Part shown: in pieces, positions 24,701 to 34,423 of the stretch
Layout of the letters: every line of letters starts with the position of its first letter
Numbering within the stretch: the stretch's first letter is position 1
Origin: Acidobacteriota bacterium
GTDB taxonomy: Bacteria > Acidobacteriota > Thermoanaerobaculia > Multivoradales > J023
Length of the DNA: 64,000 bases
Direction: 5' to 3'
Assembly: GCA_039194425.1 (NCBI GenBank)
Contig: JBCCVZ010000005.1
Location: 293,144 to 357,143, forward strand
Program-made: the position numbers and the translations under genes
The notes under the pieces: generated by a model
The model's database searches: none
The model's input: only the letters and a program-made list of their open reading frames with translations
What the model was told of the DNA's origin: nothing

Positions 24701-25230
24701 ACCTTTTGGAGGATCAGACCATCCCCTCGACAGACCGCGTTTCAGAAGCCACCGAGTCGGTGTCCGCCACCGCGACCACGACGGTCGACGAGCCCACCGA
24801 CGACGCGCACCCCGAGGCCGCTCTCGCCGACGCCGAGCGCCGTCCGCGCACCCGCGCCGGGACGCTCGAGTCGATCGAGCAGGCGCGTTTGGCCGCAGAG
24901 GCAGCGCTCGACCGCCAGGCGGTCGACCTCAAGGTGCTGGAGCTCGCCGGGGTCAGCGACTTCACCGACTACTTCCTGATCTGTACCGGCAACAACGAGC
25001 GCCAGGTGCAGGCCATTGCCGACGCGATCGAGAAGAGCCTGCGAGATGCCAAGGTGAAGCCGCTCCACATCGAAGGCAAGAGCGGGGCACGGTGGGTCCT
25101 GCTGGACTACGGTGGTGACATGGTGGTCCACGTGTTCCGCGACGAAGCGCGCAGCTTCTACGACCTCGAGCGGTTGTGGTCCGACGCGCCGGATGTCACC
25201 GACCAGCTGGTCGAGGGCGCCGCCGGCTGA
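24697..25230 (+). CDS. rsfS: Ribosome silencing factor (Iojap)
   Basis: DYFLICTG, RQVQAIAD, WVLLDYG, VHVF and FYDLERLW motifs; low-complexity N-terminal extension. Confidence 0.93.
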
Positions 25231-26165
25231 GGCCAAGCCGGCAGGCGACGGAGACGCCGATCCCCAGCGCGCTCGAGGATCTGCTGCGCGACGCACCGGA
25301 CCTGCGTGCCGCGCTTCCGGGCATCGAGCGCGCCGCCGCCGTCGACGCGCCGGTGCTGCTGCTCGGCGAGCCCGGCAGCGGACGCACGACGCTCGCGCGC
25401 GCAGTACACCAGGCGAGCCGGAGAGCGAGCGGCCCGCTGGTCGAGGTCGATCCCGGCGTCGTGCCGGCCTCGCTCTTCGAGAGCGAGCTCTTCGGCCACC
25501 GTGCCGGCGCCTTCACCGGCGCGGCCGGTGACGTCGCCGGTCGCGTCGAGCGCGCCGAGCGCGGCAGCTTGGTCCTCGACCACGTCGAAGAGCTGCCGCT
25601 TTCCTTGCAACCCAAGCTGCTGCGCCTGCTCGCCGAGCACGCCTACACGCCGCTCGGCGGGCGCGAACGCCAGGCCGACGTGCGCTTCCTTGCCCTCGGC
25701 GCCGACGATCTCGAGCGCCGCGTTGAGCGCGGCACGTTCCGCGCCGATCTCTTCTATCGCCTCGAGGTCTTGGCCTTTTCCTTGCCGCCGCTGCGTCGTC
25801 GCCGGCGCGACCTCCCGGCGCTGATCGACCGCCTGCTCGCCGACCTCGCCGAGCGCTTCGGCCGCCCGCTGCCGCGCCTCGACACCGCCGACCGGCGCTG
25901 GATGCTCGAGCACCCCTGGCCCGGCAACCTGCGTCAGCTCCGTAACGTTCTCGAACGCGCCCTAGTGATCGCCGAGGGCGACGTCCTGGAGGTCGAACCG
26001 CCCACCGACTCCGACTCCGCCCCGCGCCCCCTCGCCGAGGTCGAGCGTGATGAGATCCGCCGCGCCCTCGCCCATACCCGCGGCCACCAGGGCCGCGCCG
26101 CCGCGCTCCTCGGTATCAGCCGCAAGGCCCTCTGGGAGAAGCGCAAGCGCTACGGTCTGCCGTGA
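25176..26165 (+). CDS. Sigma-54 enhancer-binding-type AAA+ regulator with Fis HTH, no N-terminal sensor domain
   Basis: ESELFGH, GAFTGA, FRADLFYRL and WPGNLRQL motifs; C-terminal HTH; start uncertain. Confidence 0.85.
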   Translation: MVRRAGCHRPAGRGRRRLRPSRQATETPIPSALEDLLRDAPDLRAALPGIERAAAVDAPVLLLGEPGSGRTTLARAVHQASRRASGPLVEVDPGVVPASLFESELFGHRAGAFTGAAGDVAGRVERAERGSLVLDHVEELPLSLQPKLLRLLAEHAYTPLGGRERQADVRFLALGADDLERRVERGTFRADLFYRLEVLAFSLPPLRRRRRDLPALIDRLLADLAERFGRPLPRLDTADRRWMLEHPWPGNLRQLRNVLERALVIAEGDVLEVEPPTDSDSAPRPLAEVERDEIRRALAHTRGHQGRAAALLGISRKALWEKRKRYGLP

Positions 26166-26272
26166 GATCATAGGGCTATTCGTGCCAACAGGAGTCGTTT
26201 CGCGTCAGTCTTCGAGAGAAGAAGACCGAGATCGTGGCGTCGGTTTGGGGGATTTGGTTGTCAGGAGGAGCA

Positions 26273-27574
26273 ATGGCCCAGTTTGCAGAGCGGAAGAACC
26301 CCCCAGACGTGCCGGGCGCGCTGCAGATCGACGAGGCTGCGCGCGACTGGCTGCAGTCGTGGACCGGCAGTCTCGGGCTCGACGGCGCTGGGCTCCGTCA
26401 TCGTTCGGGTGAGGCCAAGACCGGCGCTTCGTTTGTGCTCGAGCTCTTGCCCGACCCGCACGGCGCTTCGGGGGCGGCGGCTACTGGCGCGACGCCGGCG
26501 CATGAAGGACCGCTGCGGGTGACCTTCGAGGAAGAGGAGATTCTTCGACTGAGCGGCGACCTCTACGAGCGCCCGTCCCGCGATCGGTCTGGACGGGTCG
26601 GCGACCTCGCGGAGCCGCCCTGGTTCGCACGCTCGGCCTACCGCGTGTATCTGCGGGGTGTCGAGATTCGGGGTCGTGACACTGTCTTCAACTGCTTTCG
26701 GTGGCAGGATTCGGTGTGGGTCGTGTGCTCGGACCTCGTCTTGACGCAAACCAGCGTTCCGCCCTCGACCGAGTCGTTTCGAGACACGACCGCCGCTCTT
26801 CGAGGCGACTACATGCACGGTGCCGAGAGGGGAACGTTTTGCCTCGCTTGGACCGGTTCGGTCTTGCGGCGGGCTCTGGTCGAGATCGACAAGGTGACGG
26901 CGGTGGCCTGGCCCGACGCTCCGGATCCGGCGCGGACGATCGAGTCGGCTTTTCGCGCCGCCTCGTGGCGGGTCGAAGTCGAGCACAACTGCAGCTCGAT
27001 CGCTGACCCGCCGCACGGCGAGCTTGCGACGGACGAGTTCCTGAACGAGGCGGCCGATCGTTTCCGCAAGAAGCTCCCGGACACGGCCTGGCACTACTAC
27101 GTGCAGTGCCATCGCGGCCTGGCCGCGGCGCCTGACGGCTTCGGCCGATTGCTCAGCGACGGCGGTAGCGCGACCGAGCCCGCGCGCCAGGATGTCGTGG
27201 TCGCAGCCCATACTCGTTTGCCCCCGCCCCTGTCGGGACGCCTCCAAGATCAGCCGCTCTTGTACCTTCGTACCGTCGTCCACGAGCTCGGGCGCGCCGT
27301 GGGGTTCGATCGCAGCCCGGCGTCGGGCTGTACATTCATGCGCGATACGCGCCAACTGGTTAGCGCCTGCAAAACGGCCGAGTGGTCGTTTACCGAAGAG
27401 CAGATCCTGCTTCTGCAGCATCGACCCGACGCATGGATCCGACCGCATTTCCAGATGACGTCGGCCAAGGTTCCCCTGCCGACGAAGCTCGGGAAGTGCT
27501 TGCGGGGGTTGGTGGTGCGGTTGCGAAAGCGATGGCGCAAGCTGAAGCGCTTTGTGACGAGAGCCTCTCGATGA
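26273..27574 (+). CDS. Hypothetical protein with degenerate metzincin motif (pseudo-metalloprotease)
   Basis: RBS AGGAGG before ATG 26273; HELGRAVGFDR followed by a Met-turn-like TFM. Confidence 0.6.
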   Translation: MAQFAERKNPPDVPGALQIDEAARDWLQSWTGSLGLDGAGLRHRSGEAKTGASFVLELLPDPHGASGAAATGATPAHEGPLRVTFEEEEILRLSGDLYERPSRDRSGRVGDLAEPPWFARSAYRVYLRGVEIRGRDTVFNCFRWQDSVWVVCSDLVLTQTSVPPSTESFRDTTAALRGDYMHGAERGTFCLAWTGSVLRRALVEIDKVTAVAWPDAPDPARTIESAFRAASWRVEVEHNCSSIADPPHGELATDEFLNEAADRFRKKLPDTAWHYYVQCHRGLAAAPDGFGRLLSDGGSATEPARQDVVVAAHTRLPPPLSGRLQDQPLLYLRTVVHELGRAVGFDRSPASGCTFMRDTRQLVSACKTAEWSFTEEQILLLQHRPDAWIRPHFQMTSAKVPLPTKLGKCLRGLVVRLRKRWRKLKRFVTRASR

Positions 27575-30500
27575 AGCTCAGAGCACTCGCTGTCGTGCTC
27601 CTCGGCGCCACGTCGCTCGGTGCGCAGCCGAACGCGTTCAGCGCCGCTGAGATCGACCAAGCGATTGTCCGCCTGGCCGACGATGTCCGTTCCGACCGAG
27701 TGCTCGATCTCGAGTTTTGCCAACGTCTGCTCAAGCAGGTCGAAGTGCAGAACGGGAGGACGTCGAGCCGCTATGCACAGCTGCTCGAGCTGACCATCGA
27801 GGCGCGGATTCGGGACGGCGAGCGGCGCTCCGAGCAGCTCTTCGACATGGCGCTGGAGCTTGCTGAGCTCCGCGCGGTGACCAAGGACGAACAGCCGGAG
27901 TCCTACGCACGGGCACTGCATCTGCTCGGCCGCCTCGAGCAGCTCGGGGGTCGCTTCGACCACGCGCTTGAGTTTTACCAGGTGGCGCTCGACTTGCGGC
28001 GCACGCTCGACGGCTCGCCGCTTGAGATTGCGCGCACGTTCGAGAGCCTCGGCTCGGTACTCGACGATCTCGGCCGGCGCGCCGAAGCCCTGGAAATGCT
28101 CGAAGAGGCGCTCGAGATCCTCGACGCCGAGGGCGCGGGCGGCGAGGCTGCGCGGGTGCTCAACACGCTGGGCGGCACCCTGCATCGCCTCGGCGAGCAC
28201 GAAGAAGCCGCCGCGGCGTTCGCGCGCGCGATCGATGTCGGGCGCCAAGTGTTTGGCTCGCTACATCCGATCCAAGCGCGCAGCCATCACAACCTCGGCT
28301 ATGTTGCGCATGTCCTCGGCGACATCGAGCGCGCCGAGTCGAACCTGCGACAGGCGCTTGAGGTCCGAGTGCAGGTCCATGGCGAGGTCGACCCGGTGAC
28401 CGCCTCGAGCCAGGCGGCGCTAGGTGAGCTCGAGCACGACCGCGGGTTCTTGCACAAGGCACGAGAACATCTCGAGGCGGCCTGGGCGGCCCAGCGCGTG
28501 GGCCTCGGTGATGAGCATCCGCGCACCGTCGCCACCCTGTCGCGTCTGGGCGCTTTGCTCGCCGACCTCGGCCTCGGCGAAGAGGCCTTGGAGGCGCAGC
28601 TCGAGGCGCTGACGGTGTCGCGTCGGGTCTACCCGGGTGGCGATGTCTCTACCGCCGAGATCTTGCTCCGCTTGGCCGCTGTCGAGCGCGATCGCGGTGG
28701 GCTCGCGCCGGCGCGCCGGTATCTCCTCGAAGCTCAGGAGATCTATCGCCGAGGCACCAAGGATCGTCATGTCGGCGCAGCGCGCGTCGAGTGCCGGCTC
28801 GCCGCGCTCGACGAGGTAGCCGGCGACTCGGTCAAGGCGGCGCACGGCTTCGCCCTCTGTGACGCCCTACTCGCTCGACGAGACCTGGAGCACCCCGGGC
28901 GGATCGACTCTCTGCGGGGTCTATCGCGCACCGCACGTGAACTCGGGACGGCCAGCCGCTACCTCCAGCGTGCCGAGATCCTGGCTCGCTCGCTGGTCGG
29001 GGAGATCCACCCGCTGCGGAGCGAAATTCAGGTCGAGAAAGCAGTCTTGCTGGCGCGAGGCGGCGAGGTGACGGCGGCACTCGCCGAAGCGCTGACGGCG
29101 AGCGCGCGCGCGCGCCAGTGGGTGAGGATCGGCGTTGCCGGCCTGTCGCACCGGGAAGCGGACCGTTTCGAGCGCCTGGGGCGTCGCCCACTCGACCTCG
29201 TGGTCTCGCTCGCGAGGCGACACCCCGAGGTGTCCGTCGGGGCAGTTTGGGGCGAGGTGATCGCGGCGCGGAGCCTGGTGCTCGACACTCAGGTCTTTCG
29301 CGCGCGTCTAGGGCGGGAGTGCGCCGGTACCGCGCGTCGCGCCAAGCTCGAAGAGCTCGATCGGTCGACGCAGCGACTTGGTGCCCTCTGGCATCGCGGC
29401 TCGGGTGTCCTCCCGGAGGACTCGCGTGCTCGCCTCGCCACGAGTCTGCGGCGGCGCGCCGAATCACTCGAGCGTGATCTCGCCGCCGATCCCGACTGCC
29501 CCATGCCGGAGCTGCAGGAACCGAGCCTCGACGCCGTGCGCGAGCGTCTGCAGCAGGTTGGGGACGCGGCGATTCTCTTGGCGACCGCGCGCTATACCGA
29601 TCTGCTCGCGGACAGTGGCGCCGAGCGCGATCGCTACGCCGCCTGGATCGCGACGCCGGGCGCGATGCCGCTGTTCCTCGACCTTGGACCGGCCGCGGCG
29701 CTCGAGGAATCTATCGACACCTGGCGCAAAGTGATGTTGGGAGCGCTCGAAGGACGCGTCGACGAGGCCGAGGTCGAGGCCGCACGCGATGGTCTCAGCG
29801 CCCTGCTGTGGCGTCCCTTGGCACCGCATCTTGAGAGCCTGACTGCTGAACGAGCGAACGATCCCATCGAGCCCGCCGAGCGGCTGCTCTGGGTGCCCGA
29901 CGGCGCCTTGCGGGGCGTGGCGCTTCCCGCGCTACGCGATGAGCGAGGCCGAGATCTTCTCGACGTGTTACCTCCAGTCGTGCGCCTGGCGAGTGAGCGT
30001 GATCTCGTCGCCACGGTCTCACCCAAAGCCCACGGGCGAGGTCTGTTGGCTGTCGGTGCACCTCTCGCAGCGCCCATGGAGGTTGACACAGGCGCTGAGC
30101 TCGTCGATCCCGAAGCGCCGAGGCTACCCACGCTCGAGGGTGCCGAGGCCGAGGTGCATGCCATCGTACGGTTGTGGAACGAGAGCACTACGAACAGCGC
30201 CTCGGTCGCCGCTGTTCTCCTTGGCCCGACCGCGACCGAGGAAGCTGTACGGCGGCATGCGGTTGGCGCCGAGGTCTTGCATTTCGCCACCCACGTCACC
30301 CGAGTCGAGGTCGACGATCTACTGCTCGGCTCGGCTCTCGTGCTCACCGGCTTCGGCAGCTTCGATCGCTCCGGCCAGCCCGGAGACGACGGCTACTTGA
30401 GCGCCGCGGAAGTCGCCCGCCTCGATCTCGGCGCGACTTCTTGGGTGGTGCTCTCGGGCTGTGAGAGCTTCGGCGCGTTGCAGCGCGCCTTCCGTTTCGC

Positions 30501-30741
30501 CGGTGCGCGCGGACTGGTCACCAGCCTGTGGCCAGTCGGTGATCGCTGGGCGATGCAGTCGATGCGAGCGCTCTACCAGAGCTTCGTGCGTCATGGTGAC
30601 ATGCCGCTCGCAATCCGCGACGCAGCTCTCGAGGTGCGGGCGGAGTCTCTGCGCACGAGTGGTCGGAGTCTCCCGGAACGCTGGGCTGCGTTCGTTGCCG
30701 AGGTCGGAGATCCCGTGGTCAACCTGAGGAGGACACGATGA
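27571..30741 (+). CDS. Secreted TPR-repeat + CHAT (caspase-like) protease
   Basis: Signal peptide MKLRALAVVLLGA; TPR repeats (HPIQARSHHNLG, HPRTVATLSRLG); VPDGAL, HFATH, LSGC and SLWPV motifs. Confidence 0.88.
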   Translation: MKLRALAVVLLGATSLGAQPNAFSAAEIDQAIVRLADDVRSDRVLDLEFCQRLLKQVEVQNGRTSSRYAQLLELTIEARIRDGERRSEQLFDMALELAELRAVTKDEQPESYARALHLLGRLEQLGGRFDHALEFYQVALDLRRTLDGSPLEIARTFESLGSVLDDLGRRAEALEMLEEALEILDAEGAGGEAARVLNTLGGTLHRLGEHEEAAAAFARAIDVGRQVFGSLHPIQARSHHNLGYVAHVLGDIERAESNLRQALEVRVQVHGEVDPVTASSQAALGELEHDRGFLHKAREHLEAAWAAQRVGLGDEHPRTVATLSRLGALLADLGLGEEALEAQLEALTVSRRVYPGGDVSTAEILLRLAAVERDRGGLAPARRYLLEAQEIYRRGTKDRHVGAARVECRLAALDEVAGDSVKAAHGFALCDALLARRDLEHPGRIDSLRGLSRTARELGTASRYLQRAEILARSLVGEIHPLRSEIQVEKAVLLARGGEVTAALAEALTASARARQWVRIGVAGLSHREADRFERLGRRPLDLVVSLARRHPEVSVGAVWGEVIAARSLVLDTQVFRARLGRECAGTARRAKLEELDRSTQRLGALWHRGSGVLPEDSRARLATSLRRRAESLERDLAADPDCPMPELQEPSLDAVRERLQQVGDAAILLATARYTDLLADSGAERDRYAAWIATPGAMPLFLDLGPAAALEESIDTWRKVMLGALEGRVDEAEVEAARDGLSALLWRPLAPHLESLTAERANDPIEPAERLLWVPDGALRGVALPALRDERGRDLLDVLPPVVRLASERDLVATVSPKAHGRGLLAVGAPLAAPMEVDTGAELVDPEAPRLPTLEGAEAEVHAIVRLWNESTTNSASVAAVLLGPTATEEAVRRHAVGAEVLHFATHVTRVEVDDLLLGSALVLTGFGSFDRSGQPGDDGYLSAAEVARLDLGATSWVVLSGCESFGALQRAFRFAGARGLVTSLWPVGDRWAMQSMRALYQSFVRHGDMPLAIRDAALEVRAESLRTSGRSLPERWAAFVAEVGDPVVNLRRTR

Positions 30742-31109
30742 AGAAGGAAGAGGACAGACAAGGCGCAGGAACGCTGGCCAACCAGGAGGCGGCGGCTCCC
30801 GAGGCGTCGGTTTCCGAGACGAGAGAGACGCCCGCGATGTCGTTCGGGGCGCGGCAGCTGCGCAGCGAGAAAGGGCCGAGGAGCGTTCGCGTCGTTCACG
30901 CCGGCGATGGCAGGGCGACCCTGCTCATGCCCCGCGAGATGGTCGAGGCGTTGGTGGTGGGGTTGCAGGGCAAGGACTTGTCGGACCCCGGAAGCCTGCC
31001 TCCCGGCGTGTCTCTCGACGCCGAAGGCAACCTGGCTTTCTCGATGGGCGAGAGAAGTGTCACCTCGATGATCTCGTGGGCGCGGATCGACGACGTCTGC
31101 TTCCCCTGA
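30738..31109 (+). CDS. 123-aa small protein, candidate RiPP precursor
   Basis: RBS GAGGAGG; ATGA overlap with the CHAT gene; 8 bp upstream of the rSAM gene; C-terminus SWARIDDVCFP. Confidence 0.6.
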   Translation: MKKEEDRQGAGTLANQEAAAPEASVSETRETPAMSFGARQLRSEKGPRSVRVVHAGDGRATLLMPREMVEALVVGLQGKDLSDPGSLPPGVSLDAEGNLAFSMGERSVTSMISWARIDDVCFP

Positions 31110-31117
31110 GCCGGACG

Positions 31118-32149
31118 ATGACCACCGCGACCAGCCTCGATCCAGTCGCGTGGGACGATCGCTTGCCGTACCTGGCGAACGACGTTCTGCGCCTGATCGT
31201 GATGCCTACCGAGCAGTGCAACCTGCGCTGCGTCTACTGCTATGAGTCGTTCGAGATCGGCCGGATGGGCGACGATACCGCCCAGGGCATTCGGCGTCTG
31301 CTGACGCGGCGAGCGCCGGGCTTGAGCCGGCTGCGGCTCGACTGGTTCGGCGGCGAGCCGCTGCTCGCCGCCGACCGTATCGAGGAGATCCAGGAGCATG
31401 CGAGCGCGCTCGCGGCGCGCCACGGCTTCACGCTCGAGGCCGAGGCGACCACCAATGCCGTGATGCTCGACGCCGAGAGGCTGCACCGCTTCGCCGCGCG
31501 GGGGCTGCGCCGCTACCAGATCTCGCTCGACGGCCCGCCCGAGGAGCACGACCGCAAGCGCACCGGCGCCGGTGGTCGAGCGACCTTCGCGACCATCTGG
31601 CGCAACGTGCGGACGGCGCTCGAGAGCGATCTCGAGCTCGAGATCCTGCTGCGTGTGCATGTCGACCGCGACAACGCGGCGTCGATCCCGCGCCTGCTGG
31701 CGATGTGCCGCGACGAGCTGCCGTGGGACGAGCGGATTCGGCTCTTCCTGCGTCCGCTGTCGCGCCTCGGAGGGCCGAACGACGCGCGGCTGCGCATACT
31801 GGGGGCCGAGAAGGACCAAGTCCTCGCCGACCTGCGCGAGCAGGCGCGGCGGCTCGGCCTCGGCGCCGGCTACGCCGGGCCCGAGGGCGTCGCGGTGTGC
31901 TACGCGGCGGCGGCCAACGCCTTCGTCGTGCGTGCCGACGGCGGCGTGTCGCGCTGCACCGTGGCGCTGGACGACCCGCGCAATCGCATCGGTCGGCTCA
32001 CTCCCGAGGGCAGGCTCGAGCTCGACACCATGGCGCAGGAGCCGTGGCTGCGCGGGCTGCTCGACGGCGACGCGCGTGCTCTGACGTGTCCGCTGAAGGC
32101 CCTGCGCTCCGACACGGCCGGCGCTTCGCCGCTGCGCGTCGTGGCGTGA
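31118..32149 (+). CDS. Radical SAM enzyme with reduced SPASM/twitch-like C-terminus (putative peptide maturase)
   Basis: PTEQCNLRCVYCYE (CxxxCxxC), WFGGEPLL, TTNA and ISLDG motifs; C-terminal CYA...RCTV...CP. Confidence 0.9.
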   Translation: MTTATSLDPVAWDDRLPYLANDVLRLIVMPTEQCNLRCVYCYESFEIGRMGDDTAQGIRRLLTRRAPGLSRLRLDWFGGEPLLAADRIEEIQEHASALAARHGFTLEAEATTNAVMLDAERLHRFAARGLRRYQISLDGPPEEHDRKRTGAGGRATFATIWRNVRTALESDLELEILLRVHVDRDNAASIPRLLAMCRDELPWDERIRLFLRPLSRLGGPNDARLRILGAEKDQVLADLREQARRLGLGAGYAGPEGVAVCYAAAANAFVVRADGGVSRCTVALDDPRNRIGRLTPEGRLELDTMAQEPWLRGLLDGDARALTCPLKALRSDTAGASPLRVVA

Positions 32150-32161
32150 GCCCGAGCTCCG

Positions 32162-34423
32162 TCAGCGGGCCTGCCCGGGCGCCTCCGCGGGCGCGTCGGC
32201 CGGCGGCGGCAAGCAGTCGGCGAGGGCGCGCCAGGCGCGGCGGCGGCGGAGCGGGGCGAACGCCGGCTCGACCATGGCGAAGCTGAGCGCTTCGGCGGGC
32301 TCGTCGACGCAGGCGCGCTCGAGCAGTGCCTGGGCGGCGGTGCGGTCGCCGGCGAGCGCCGCCCAGAGGGCTTGCTCGGCGGCCACCGGGTGGCCGGCGT
32401 CGGCGGCGGCGCGCCACGCCTCACGCTGACGCGCGAGGGCCTCGGTGAGGCTCACCGGCGGCGGCTGGCCGTGCACCGAGAACGCGACTCCGAGGTGCTG
32501 CAGGGCCTCGTCGTCACGTCCCTCGGCGAGCAGGGCACGCACCAAGAGATCGTGGGCGGTGCGATGGTACGGGTAGAGCTCGAGAGTGTCGCGTGCGTGC
32601 TCGATCGCCTCGCTCGATCGGCCGGCGAAGTAGTCGAGCGCGATGTCGAGCGCCCGCGTTTCTGGCCCGAGGGGGTCGAGGCGGCGCGCCTGCTCGAGAT
32701 CGCGTCGCGCCGCCTCGTGCTGGCCGCGCGACGATGCGAGCGCGGCGCGCGCGAGTAGCGGCGGATGCCAGCCGGGTGCGAGCTCGACCGCGCGCTGCGC
32801 CTCGCGCGCGGCGGTTTCCCAGTCGTGGTGGAGCAGGCGGGCGACTCGGCACAGCGCCAGGTGCGCCGAGGCGAGCTCGGCGTCGAGCTCGAGGGCATGG
32901 CGCGCGGCCGCTTCCACCGCCGGCAAGGCGGCGTGCGGCGTTTCGCCACGCAGGCGCCAGTGTGCCTCGGCCAGAGCGGCGTGGGCGAAAGCGTGCGACG
33001 GCAGCCGGGCGGCCAGGGTCTCGAGCTCACGAAGCGCGCGTCGAGACGCCGCGATCTCGCCCTGGTAGAGGCGGCCGTAGGCGATGAGCAGGGCGACCCG
33101 GTCTTCCGCCGGCAGAGGATCGAGCGTCGCGGCGGACGGGGGCGGAACCGTCTGGGTCTGCAGCGCCTGAGCGACATGATTCGCAACCTCGTCGTACCAG
33201 GCCGGCAACTCGTCGAGCCGGGGCTCGAACGTTCCGGCCCACAGGTGCCGCGAGATCGCCGTGGGCTCGAGGCGTAGCGTGAGATGCAGGCGATCGCCGT
33301 GGCGTGCGAGGCGCGCACGCAGTACGTAGTCGGCACCGAGCGCCGGCCACGAGGCGTCCGATGCGACGGAGCGGCGGACGGTCGACGAGGCGAGAACGGT
33401 CGGCGCACCGCCGAGCCGCGCCGCCAGGCGCCGAGTCAGCAACTCGTGGACCGCGACGCCGAGAGGCTCGGTGTCAGTGTCGACTCCGACGATCTCGAAC
33501 GGCGCGATCGCGAGCATCGCTTCGGTCACCGTCGGCGCGGCAGGCGGCGACTCGTTGGGGCGCGCCAGCGCCCAGGTGACGATCAGGGCCGCGAACAAGG
33601 CGCCGACGGTGGGCACCAGGCGGTTCCACCGCCGAGCCCGCAAGGAGGCATCGATCGAGCCGAAGAGTCCGGTCGGCGTGAACGCGCCGTCGGCGCGGTC
33701 GGTCAGTGCCTCGGTTCCACGGTCTCGCGTGTCGGTCAGGCGTGGGGCGGGCACTCTGGGGCTCGAGCTGGTCGCGAGACCTTGTGGGCCGACGCCAGAT
33801 GGCGTGACGTCCGGAGGGTTGGCCGGGCGTGGGGCTACGATCCGTAGGTCTTCATCTCGAGAGTCTGCATCTCGAGAGTCGGCGGCTCGAAGATCGGCGG
33901 TCTGGCGATCGCCTCCGCGCGCGTCGGCGCTCGGTGGGTCCGCGGCTTGTCGGCTGTCGACCGCAACTGCGACTGCGTGCTTGGCGGTCGAAGACCCCAC
34001 GGGTGTGTCGAGCCCCTCGGAGCGGTCTGGCAAGAGCCTTTCGACTGCTTTCGGCGAGCTCGCTTGGACGCCGGCACGGGTGACCGGGGACAGAAAGCGG
34101 TAGCCGACCCGCGGCACAGTCTCGACGAAACGCGGCGCGCCCGCGTCGTCGTCGAGAGCCATGCGGATCTTGCGGATCGCGAAGTTGATGCCCTGGTCGT
34201 GGTCGAGATAGCTCTCACCACCCCAAATGTGCTCCTTCAGCTGCTCACGGCTGACGACGCGCCCGGCATTCTGCAACAGCAGCTCGAGCGCCCGAGCCGG
34301 CTGTGGCTGCAGCGCCACTGCCGCGCCGCGCGCCAGCAGGCGAGTCGGCCGGGTGTGCAACTCGAACTCGTCGAATCGGTAGATCGGCGGAGCGAAGTCG
34401 GTGGGCCTTCGGGTCGGAGCCAC
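32162..34423 (-). CDS. CadC/OmpR-type winged-helix regulator with TM, TolB-like and TPR domains
   Basis: YRFDEFEL, VVSREQL...IW, AIRKIRMAL and ETVPRVGYRF motifs; TM segment; TPRs; pentapeptide low-complexity linker. Confidence 0.88.
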   Translation of the reverse strand: MAPTRRPTDFAPPIYRFDEFELHTRPTRLLARGAAVALQPQPARALELLLQNAGRVVSREQLKEHIWGGESYLDHDQGINFAIRKIRMALDDDAGAPRFVETVPRVGYRFLSPVTRAGVQASSPKAVERLLPDRSEGLDTPVGSSTAKHAVAVAVDSRQAADPPSADARGGDRQTADLRAADSRDADSRDEDLRIVAPRPANPPDVTPSGVGPQGLATSSSPRVPAPRLTDTRDRGTEALTDRADGAFTPTGLFGSIDASLRARRWNRLVPTVGALFAALIVTWALARPNESPPAAPTVTEAMLAIAPFEIVGVDTDTEPLGVAVHELLTRRLAARLGGAPTVLASSTVRRSVASDASWPALGADYVLRARLARHGDRLHLTLRLEPTAISRHLWAGTFEPRLDELPAWYDEVANHVAQALQTQTVPPPSAATLDPLPAEDRVALLIAYGRLYQGEIAASRRALRELETLAARLPSHAFAHAALAEAHWRLRGETPHAALPAVEAAARHALELDAELASAHLALCRVARLLHHDWETAAREAQRAVELAPGWHPPLLARAALASSRGQHEAARRDLEQARRLDPLGPETRALDIALDYFAGRSSEAIEHARDTLELYPYHRTAHDLLVRALLAEGRDDEALQHLGVAFSVHGQPPPVSLTEALARQREAWRAAADAGHPVAAEQALWAALAGDRTAAQALLERACVDEPAEALSFAMVEPAFAPLRRRRAWRALADCLPPPADAPAEAPGQAR

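Follow-up and report, generated by a model that had tools for sequence, protein, structure and literature searches.

A small open reading frame (ORF) lying between the genes of a caspase-like protease and a radical S-adenosylmethionine (rSAM) enzyme in an Acidobacteriota genome is, judging by its position and a C-terminal motif, most likely a peptide substrate of the adjacent enzyme. The ORF (30738..31109, plus strand; stop TGA at 31107-31109) encodes 123 residues, or 90 if translation starts at M34 (ATG at 30837), and is found in a 64,000-nucleotide stretch of assembly GCA_039194425.1 (contig JBCCVZ010000005.1, positions 293,144 to 357,143), referred to here as the window. It is the third of four close-packed genes on the plus strand, being preceded by an ORF of 446 residues and by the gene of a TPR-CHAT protease (27571..30741; 1056 residues from the likely ATG at 27571, 1119 from an alternative GTG at 27382), and followed after only eight bases by the rSAM gene (31118..32149, plus strand; 343 residues, with an alternative GTG start at 31076). 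Within the peptide, the probable reactive residue is the single cysteine, Cys121, and not the single tryptophan, W114. Taken as a whole, the proposal that the rSAM enzyme would join Cys121 to Asp118 through a thioether, in a cassette coupled to the CHAT protease, is one to which we give an even chance.

The small ORF has the marks of a real gene. A Shine-Dalgarno-like GAGGAGG (30726..30732, plus strand) stands 5 nucleotides ahead of its ATG, which forms an overlapping ATGA with the TPR-CHAT stop codon just upstream, and the guanine-plus-cytosine (GC) content at its codon positions 1/2/3 is 0.64/0.52/0.84, to be set beside 0.74/0.51/0.90 in the rSAM gene and 0.79/0.49/0.78 in the CHAT gene. The slot that it occupies, from the CHAT stop to the rSAM start, measures 377 nucleotides, and the same slot spans 289-392 nucleotides in homologous loci. 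No second ORF with coding-like GC at the third codon position was seen in this gap; a Cys/Trp-rich ORF of 54 residues in another frame (30907-31071) was rejected as an artefact of GC-rich sequence, the high third-position GC belonging to the 123-residue frame. Either M1 or M34 could be the start. An earlier note on this stretch had pointed out that the only Trp and the only Cys fall within the last ten of 123 residues, and the translation bears this out: W114 (TGG, 31077-31079, plus strand) stands 7 residues ahead of C121 (TGC, 31098-31100, plus strand), both within the terminal decapeptide quoted there (nucleotides 31077-31106). Given one residue of each kind, the chance of finding both in that segment is (10/123)^2 = 0.0066, a post hoc figure. 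The proposed core, D118-D119-V120-C121 (31089..31100, plus strand), places an Asp at position -3 from the Cys, a spacing that is enriched in the family described below.

The enzyme matches the Pfam Radical_SAM model (PF04055) at 59.6 bits, the cut-off being 29.5, and belongs to an unnamed family of enzymes of about 340 residues, recognized by full-length similarity and a shared pattern of six cysteines. Among 8000 proteins scored, 669 are related at E<=1e-5; the 119 listed relatives other than the query itself are 42-52% identical to it, the best of them, at 44-52%, covering 85-100% of its length, and the 120 best-listed proteins are 309-417 residues long. The three cysteines of the CX3CX2C motif (C34, C38 and C41) are invariant in all 24 aligned rows, and C261, C280 and C324 are invariant or nearly so. 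Since the CX3CX2C motif begins at residue 27-41 in every one of these rows, there is no room ahead of it for a leader-binding (RRE) domain; in an AlphaFold2 model of the window enzyme (predicted local distance difference test, pLDDT, 89.8), the first barrel strand already lies at residues 23-28. Towards the C-terminus only three cysteines are conserved in the 24 rows, arranged as C261-x13-G275-x4-C280 plus C324, and the CX2CX5CX3C block is absent. Twitch domains are defined by a C-x(9-15)-G-x4-C hairpin and one or more further Cys ligands without the CX2CX5CX3C block, and the window enzyme has this layout, with a single predicted auxiliary-cluster site. A seventh cysteine, Cys197 (31706-31708), is present in 9 of the 24 aligned members, mostly relatives from the CHAT-linked clade, and could be a clade-specific fourth ligand.

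None of the 59 NCBIfam families matched by the enzyme reaches its cut-off. Nine of the ten top neighbours, all sub-threshold, are peptide maturases of the Cys or thioether type, namely TIGR04463 (116 bits, cut-off 525), geopeptide, CefB, Clo7bot, PapB (86 against 340), nif11, QhpD, FlmE/OhkG and CcpM, and the SCIFF maturase model gives 49.8 bits against 425. The tenth neighbour is the DynA model (NF041298), at 57.8 bits against 450 and over residues 41-204 only, which is the rSAM core; the models of AmcB (57.0 against 425), YhhB (43.6 against 445) and DarW (41.3 against 650) are likewise matched over the core only, and no DarE model is present among the 25 best of the 59 families, the lowest of which scores 41 bits. 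These scores speak against the DynA-type layout that the earlier note had suggested for this enzyme, of which one element survives, a short enzyme without room for an RRE (the DynA profile is 356 positions long). By profile (hmmsearch E 1.2e-25) and by fold (Foldseek E 1.5e-14, template-modelling score 0.67) the best solved relative is CteB. Other neighbours are anSME (Foldseek ranks 4-7 and 9-10; profile E 4e-14), SkfB (Foldseek E 1.5e-10; profile E 2.6e-08) and ChlB (Foldseek ranks 8 and 11), the chains of which are identified as a cyclophane synthase in PMC12912966. The modelled fold is that of a peptide-modifying enzyme with SPASM/twitch kin, and it does not fix the chemistry.

A scan of species-representative genomes gave at least 573 family loci, of which 79 were analysed, and a metagenome scan gave at least 560, of which 80 were analysed. 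A precursor hidden Markov model (HMM), iterated from ten actinobacterial small ORFs upstream of rSAM genes, gathers 57 upstream ORFs in 56 of the 79 genome loci and 27 ORFs in 25 of the 80 metagenome loci. These precursors share a strand-helix motif in the N-terminal leader and are rich in Cys at the C-terminus, and thirteen of them compared with NCBIfam scored above the cut-off of no model. As a guard against circularity, precursors were reselected by the leader motif alone, which retained 74 of 340 candidate ORFs at 72 loci from both locus sets. Within their last 30 residues, 71 of these 74 have Cys (8.0% Cys there, 0.8% in the leaders) and 12 have Trp, without enrichment (0.7% against 0.6%). 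The hallmark of the family's precursors is Cys, not Trp.

This contrast bears on the Trp-initiated core with a Trp-carbon cross-link that the earlier note had proposed for the terminal decapeptide, by comparison with dynobactin, darobactin and the triceptides. Such chemistry would have some footing, in that W114-A-R116 is an aromatic-x-x triplet, that a cyclophane synthase, ChlB, stands among the fold neighbours, and that DynA and AmcB are RRE-less enzymes of similar length (profiles of 356 and 362); WprB is reported to join Trp to Arg in aromatic-x-x motifs (PMC11851443). The DynA, AmcB, YhhB and DarW models, however, all remain far below their cut-offs, and the precursors of this family are Cys-based and lack the conserved Trp-containing core that marks daropeptides of the DynA/DarE type. 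The W-A-R triplet, the only one of its kind in the window peptide, is not conserved in relatives: the precursors of the three nearest-clade loci (L011, L013 and L021) have F, H and G, respectively, seven residues ahead of the Cys, where the window has W. A Trp-centred carbon cross-link of the dynobactin, darobactin or triceptide (ChlB, WprB, AmcB) type is, on this evidence, very unlikely.

A spaced acidic or amide residue accompanies the cysteines. Of 69 precursors, 57 collected by the HMM and 12 by hand, 43 show the pattern (N/D)-x-x-C, against a shuffle mean of 16.6 (standard deviation 3.4, maximum 28; 500 shuffles), and it is replicated in the independent metagenome loci, with 20 of 27 against a mean of 8.4 (standard deviation 2.1, maximum 15). 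Asn or Asp at -1, -2 or -4 from the Cys, and the reversed orders, occur at shuffle level only. The -3 spacing is the only one enriched, which points to a defined partner residue at that distance ahead of the Cys. The precursors of L011, L013 and L021 all carry D-x-x-C near the C-terminal end and a small residue at -6, like D118-D-V-C121 of the window, and they do so although the family HMM misses them. A passing remark in the earlier note, that the Cys might be linked to an Asp, agrees with this family-wide pattern, and of the C-terminal conservation that it asked to be checked, D-x-x-C is kept in the nearest clade and the Trp is not. Some features of the counts weigh against our proposal. The 12 hand-picked precursors were known to end in Cys; 26 of the 69 lack the pattern, the largest actinobacterial group having Asn at -1/-2 instead; and the sequences are related to each other, not independent, so that the shuffle controls overstate the significance.

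The reaction that we propose follows the open-site auxiliary-cluster mechanism of CteB-type enzymes. With only three conserved C-terminal cysteines, the auxiliary cluster could take a thiolate of the substrate as its fourth ligand, and the Cys121 thiolate would bind its open iron. The 5'-deoxyadenosyl radical from the CX3CX2C cluster would then take a hydrogen off Asp118, most likely from the beta-carbon, and the sulfur would capture the resulting carbon radical, giving a four-residue thioether ring, D118-C121, near the C-terminus. Finally, the co-transcribed and probably exported TPR-CHAT protease would act on the peptide, cutting off its leader or cleaving it in another way.

The nearest precedent for such a ring would be the streptococcal NxxC system, a RiPP (peptide synthesized on the ribosome and modified after translation) made by an rSAM enzyme. 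NxxcB is a longer rSAM/SPASM enzyme from an Rgg/SHP quorum-sensing operon of streptococci. The window enzyme differs from it in having 343 residues, no RRE, three C-terminal cysteines and a coupled TPR-CHAT gene. NxxcB joins the Cys of N-x-x-C by a thioether to the beta-carbon of the Asn, with Asp tolerated at that place and the Cys required (PMC9389541). The core spacing of NxxcA, with the acceptor three residues ahead of the Cys, is the same as in D-x-x-C of the window, a likeness that lies in the peptides. In PapB substrates the Cys comes first and the Asp later; compared with PapB and freyrasin the window motif is reversed, the Asp standing ahead of the Cys. PapB itself is reported to form Cys-Asp thioethers (PMC9413430).

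CteB, the SCIFF maturase, is the closest solved relative by profile and fold, but the window enzyme falls far short of the cut-offs of the SCIFF maturase and PapB models. The matched part of these models begins only at about positions 79-104, which leaves their N-terminal RRE region unmatched in the window enzyme, and the enzyme also lacks the distal cysteines of SPASM domains. Ranthipeptide/SCIFF maturases combine, by definition, an N-terminal RRE with a complete seven-cysteine SPASM domain, and the window enzyme does not fit this definition. SkfB of the sporulation killing factor is likewise a thioether-forming peptide rSAM enzyme with a single-auxiliary-cluster twitch domain and a neighbour in sequence and fold; it is distant, however, has 412 residues with an N-terminal extension, and its precursor and operon are unrelated to those of the window. 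DynA shares with the window enzyme its shortness and the absence of an RRE. The system would work like the thioether-type rSAM RiPPs (NxxC, ranthipeptides, SkfB) while falling outside every named family against which it was compared.

Chemistry of a different kind at Cys121, whether a sactionine-type thioether to an alpha-carbon, anSME-like oxidation of the Cys, or a link from the Cys to the aromatic residue at -7, is a modest possibility. The fold neighbours of the enzyme, which weigh against our proposal in that they include anSME, a Cys-oxidizing enzyme, and the cyclophane synthase ChlB, fit this alternative through anSME and SkfB; of the four precursors in the nearest clade, the window's included, three have W, F or H at position -7, and the actinobacterial cores depart from N-x-x-C. 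A thioether to Asp118 is favoured over these by the enrichment of the -3 spacing, which -1, -2, -4 and the reverse orders do not share. For anSME-like chemistry in particular, the full SPASM domain with two auxiliary clusters that is typical of anSME-type enzymes contrasts with the three C-terminal cysteines conserved in this family.

The protease half of the cassette is well defined by its domains. The window protein matches CHAT (PF12770) with 125.1 bits against a cut-off of 24 and TPR_12 with 130.6 bits, and the His and Cys columns of the catalytic dyad are invariant in 21 of 21 aligned CHAT rows. Read by eye, the N-terminus of the product of ATG 27571 (nucleotides 27571-27640, plus strand) resembles a signal peptide, and most full-length CHAT homologues (L010-L086) begin with a comparable short basic and then hydrophobic stretch, so the TPR-CHAT protease of the cassette is probably exported. 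The homologue of L086 has an N-terminus that looks, also by eye, like that of a lipoprotein. A TPR-CHAT homologue lies directly upstream of precursor and rSAM genes on the same strand in 25 of the 79 genome loci, and the order CHAT, small ORF, rSAM on one strand recurs in 7 of the 80 metagenome loci. In a quick maximum-likelihood tree of 79 rows, from which one locus with a truncated rSAM gene was left out, the window enzyme falls among 31 rows, grouped with 99% support, which include all 24 of the CHAT-linked ones, its nearest rows being L011, L021 and L013. The claim of the earlier note that the ORF is a precursor gains from this, the ORF sitting in the precursor slot of a conserved TPR-CHAT/small ORF/rSAM cassette, though no sequence homologue was found for it among the precursors. 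Conserved extra genes downstream, an exporter included, were not found in the CHAT clade. Csx29 of the type III-E CRISPR 'Craspase' is an example of a TPR-CHAT protease. The window protein has the same domain order, its CHAT domain coming after the TPR repeats and keeping the His/Cys dyad intact, and differs from Csx29 in its signal-peptide-like N-terminus, its fixed rSAM and peptide neighbours, and a context without CRISPR.

A more specific version of this coupling, which we consider doubtful, is that the rSAM-modified peptide of about 100 residues would be no natural product of the antibiotic type but a dedicated partner of the CHAT protease, as activator, inhibitor or sole substrate. The cassette would then be a horizontally spread and so far unrecognized module of protease control or signalling with the thioether ring as its recognition element, present in Planctomycetota, Acidobacteriota, Myxococcota, Eisenbacteria, Bacteroidota, Omnitrophota and other phyla.

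Searches with the window peptide itself weigh against the substrate role that we favour. Among 5.8 billion proteins it matched only itself; a search of relatives gave four chance-level matches (18-20 bits) within long open frames; and tblastn found it in 0 of 79 genome loci and 0 of 80 metagenome loci. The family precursor HMM gives about 0 bits on the ORF and a CHAT-clade leader HMM -1.6 bits, a leader-only HMM ranks it 10th of the 900 six-frame ORFs of the window, and pairwise Smith-Waterman comparisons with shuffles reach z-scores of at most 2.96. As no sequence homologue was detectable, the assignment as substrate draws on position and the four-residue motif. Two further points count against the proposal: the clade placement comes from the quick version of the tree, and no transporter or exporter genes were found in the 64-kb window, although the CHAT protein looks exported. 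A predicted complex of the rSAM enzyme with peptide residues 34-123, with run scores of 0.69, 0.02 and 0.02 (mark 0.32), weighs neither way, and the ESM Atlas model of the 123-residue peptide is unconfident (pLDDT 0.40). With this model and a leader in which the family motif goes undetected, the recognition domain that the earlier note had supposed to be built into the long leader gains no support and meets no contradiction.

The ORF might be no substrate at all but an accessory or partner of the CHAT protein, such as an inhibitor or adaptor, or a decayed remnant, with the rSAM enzyme acting on another substrate. The missing homology to family precursors and the unusually long leader fit this, as does a faint likeness of residues 42-120 to MBG-type repeat units of large surface proteins. 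Against it, the slot, strand, spacing and translational coupling of the ORF match those of 25 CHAT-linked loci whose small ORFs end in Cys motifs, the CHAT-rSAM gap holds no rival ORF with coding-like third-position GC, and the precursors of L011, L013 and L021 are likewise missed by the HMM yet retain D-x-x-C. We therefore regard a non-substrate role as unlikely.

The MBG likeness itself came from an exhaustive HMMER search, which returned 13 long repeat proteins, each matched in 3-10 stretches of 6-11.5 bits (sums over the repeat copies, 38-94 bits), with MBG_3 repeats in 5 of the 7 that were scanned. It is order-specific, covers about 1.5 MBG_3-type units of giant surface proteins (30861-31097), and goes with a loose resemblance between the two halves of the ORF; Pfam gives nothing on the ORF even at E<=10. 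We leave unexplained this weak apparent resemblance between the leader and repeat units of beta-hairpin type. Residues 50-75 also look by eye like a degenerate copy of the strand-helix leader motif of the family, a resemblance that we do not claim.

The family is present in 8 of 60 relatives of the window's genome and in 0 of 7 genomes of the same genus, with a best identity of 48%; the cassette is thus patchily distributed and has probably been mobile in the course of evolution. In the accessible literature, which did not extend to subscription journals and bioRxiv supplements, no paper joining radical SAM enzymes, the CHAT domain and RiPPs was found, and no description of this rSAM family. 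It is apparently a widespread and undescribed family of peptide modification, whose at least 573 genome and 560 metagenome loci carry no curated NCBIfam name, and it is unusual in lacking an RRE domain, in its single three-Cys auxiliary site and in C-terminal Cys motifs reminiscent of the NxxC peptides of streptococci. Enzymes of this kind are of interest because rSAM peptide maturases are a main source of new peptide chemistry, and the CHAT coupling of one clade, if real, would join RiPP chemistry to CHAT/caspase-like proteases.

Other parts of the family occur in different settings. A C39-peptidase ABC exporter gene after the maturase gene is the classical bacteriocin/RiPP arrangement, and such a gene follows the rSAM gene in 13 of the 79 loci. 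These loci are cyanobacterial and gammaproteobacterial (L040, L048, L062, L065, L066, L078, L083, L087 and others), some with HlyD, and their precursors have leaders of the double-glycine type. Genes for Ser/Thr protein kinases with a DUF4384 domain lie near the cassette in 8 of the 79 loci (for example L036, 8530-10311). A large actinobacterial clade (L014-L088; Streptomyces, Kitasatospora, Nonomuraea) has precursors of about 65-80 residues with a near-invariant, Asn/Gly-rich core of three cysteines, and members of this type are also found in Nannocystis and in an Entotheonellaceae genome. Archaeal members (L019, L045 and L079, from Marsarchaeota and Micrarchaeota) group beside the subclade of the window, and the peptide of L079 has four tandem N-x-G-C units with Asn at -3 of each Cys.

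The possible first gene of the operon, the 446-residue ORF (26234..27574, plus strand), has a stop that overlaps the likely CHAT start (ATGA, 27571-27574). It has no Pfam or NCBIfam match; in its closest ESM Atlas cluster (score 0.97), 21% of the members carry Peptidase_M10. The HExxH-like site of its product is degenerate, the second His being replaced by Arg, and the product may be metzincin-like but inactive, which we offer as a lead only. No homologue was found in any of the 79 related loci, which places the ORF outside the conserved core of the cassette. A scan for promoters and terminators gave nothing above shuffles, and PADLOC reported only generic TPR and viperin-core matches in the window and no defence-system model. 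On the other side of the cassette, a gene on the minus strand (32162-34423) converges on the rSAM stop at a distance of 13 nucleotides and encodes a regulator of 753 residues with an OmpR/PhoB-type winged helix (Trans_reg_C, 62 bits) and C-terminal TPR repeats; homologues of this regulator stand beside the family in 0 of 79 loci. Just upstream of the operon, an ORF on the plus strand (25176-26165) encodes an AAA+ core of the sigma-54 activator type with a GAFTGA-like motif.

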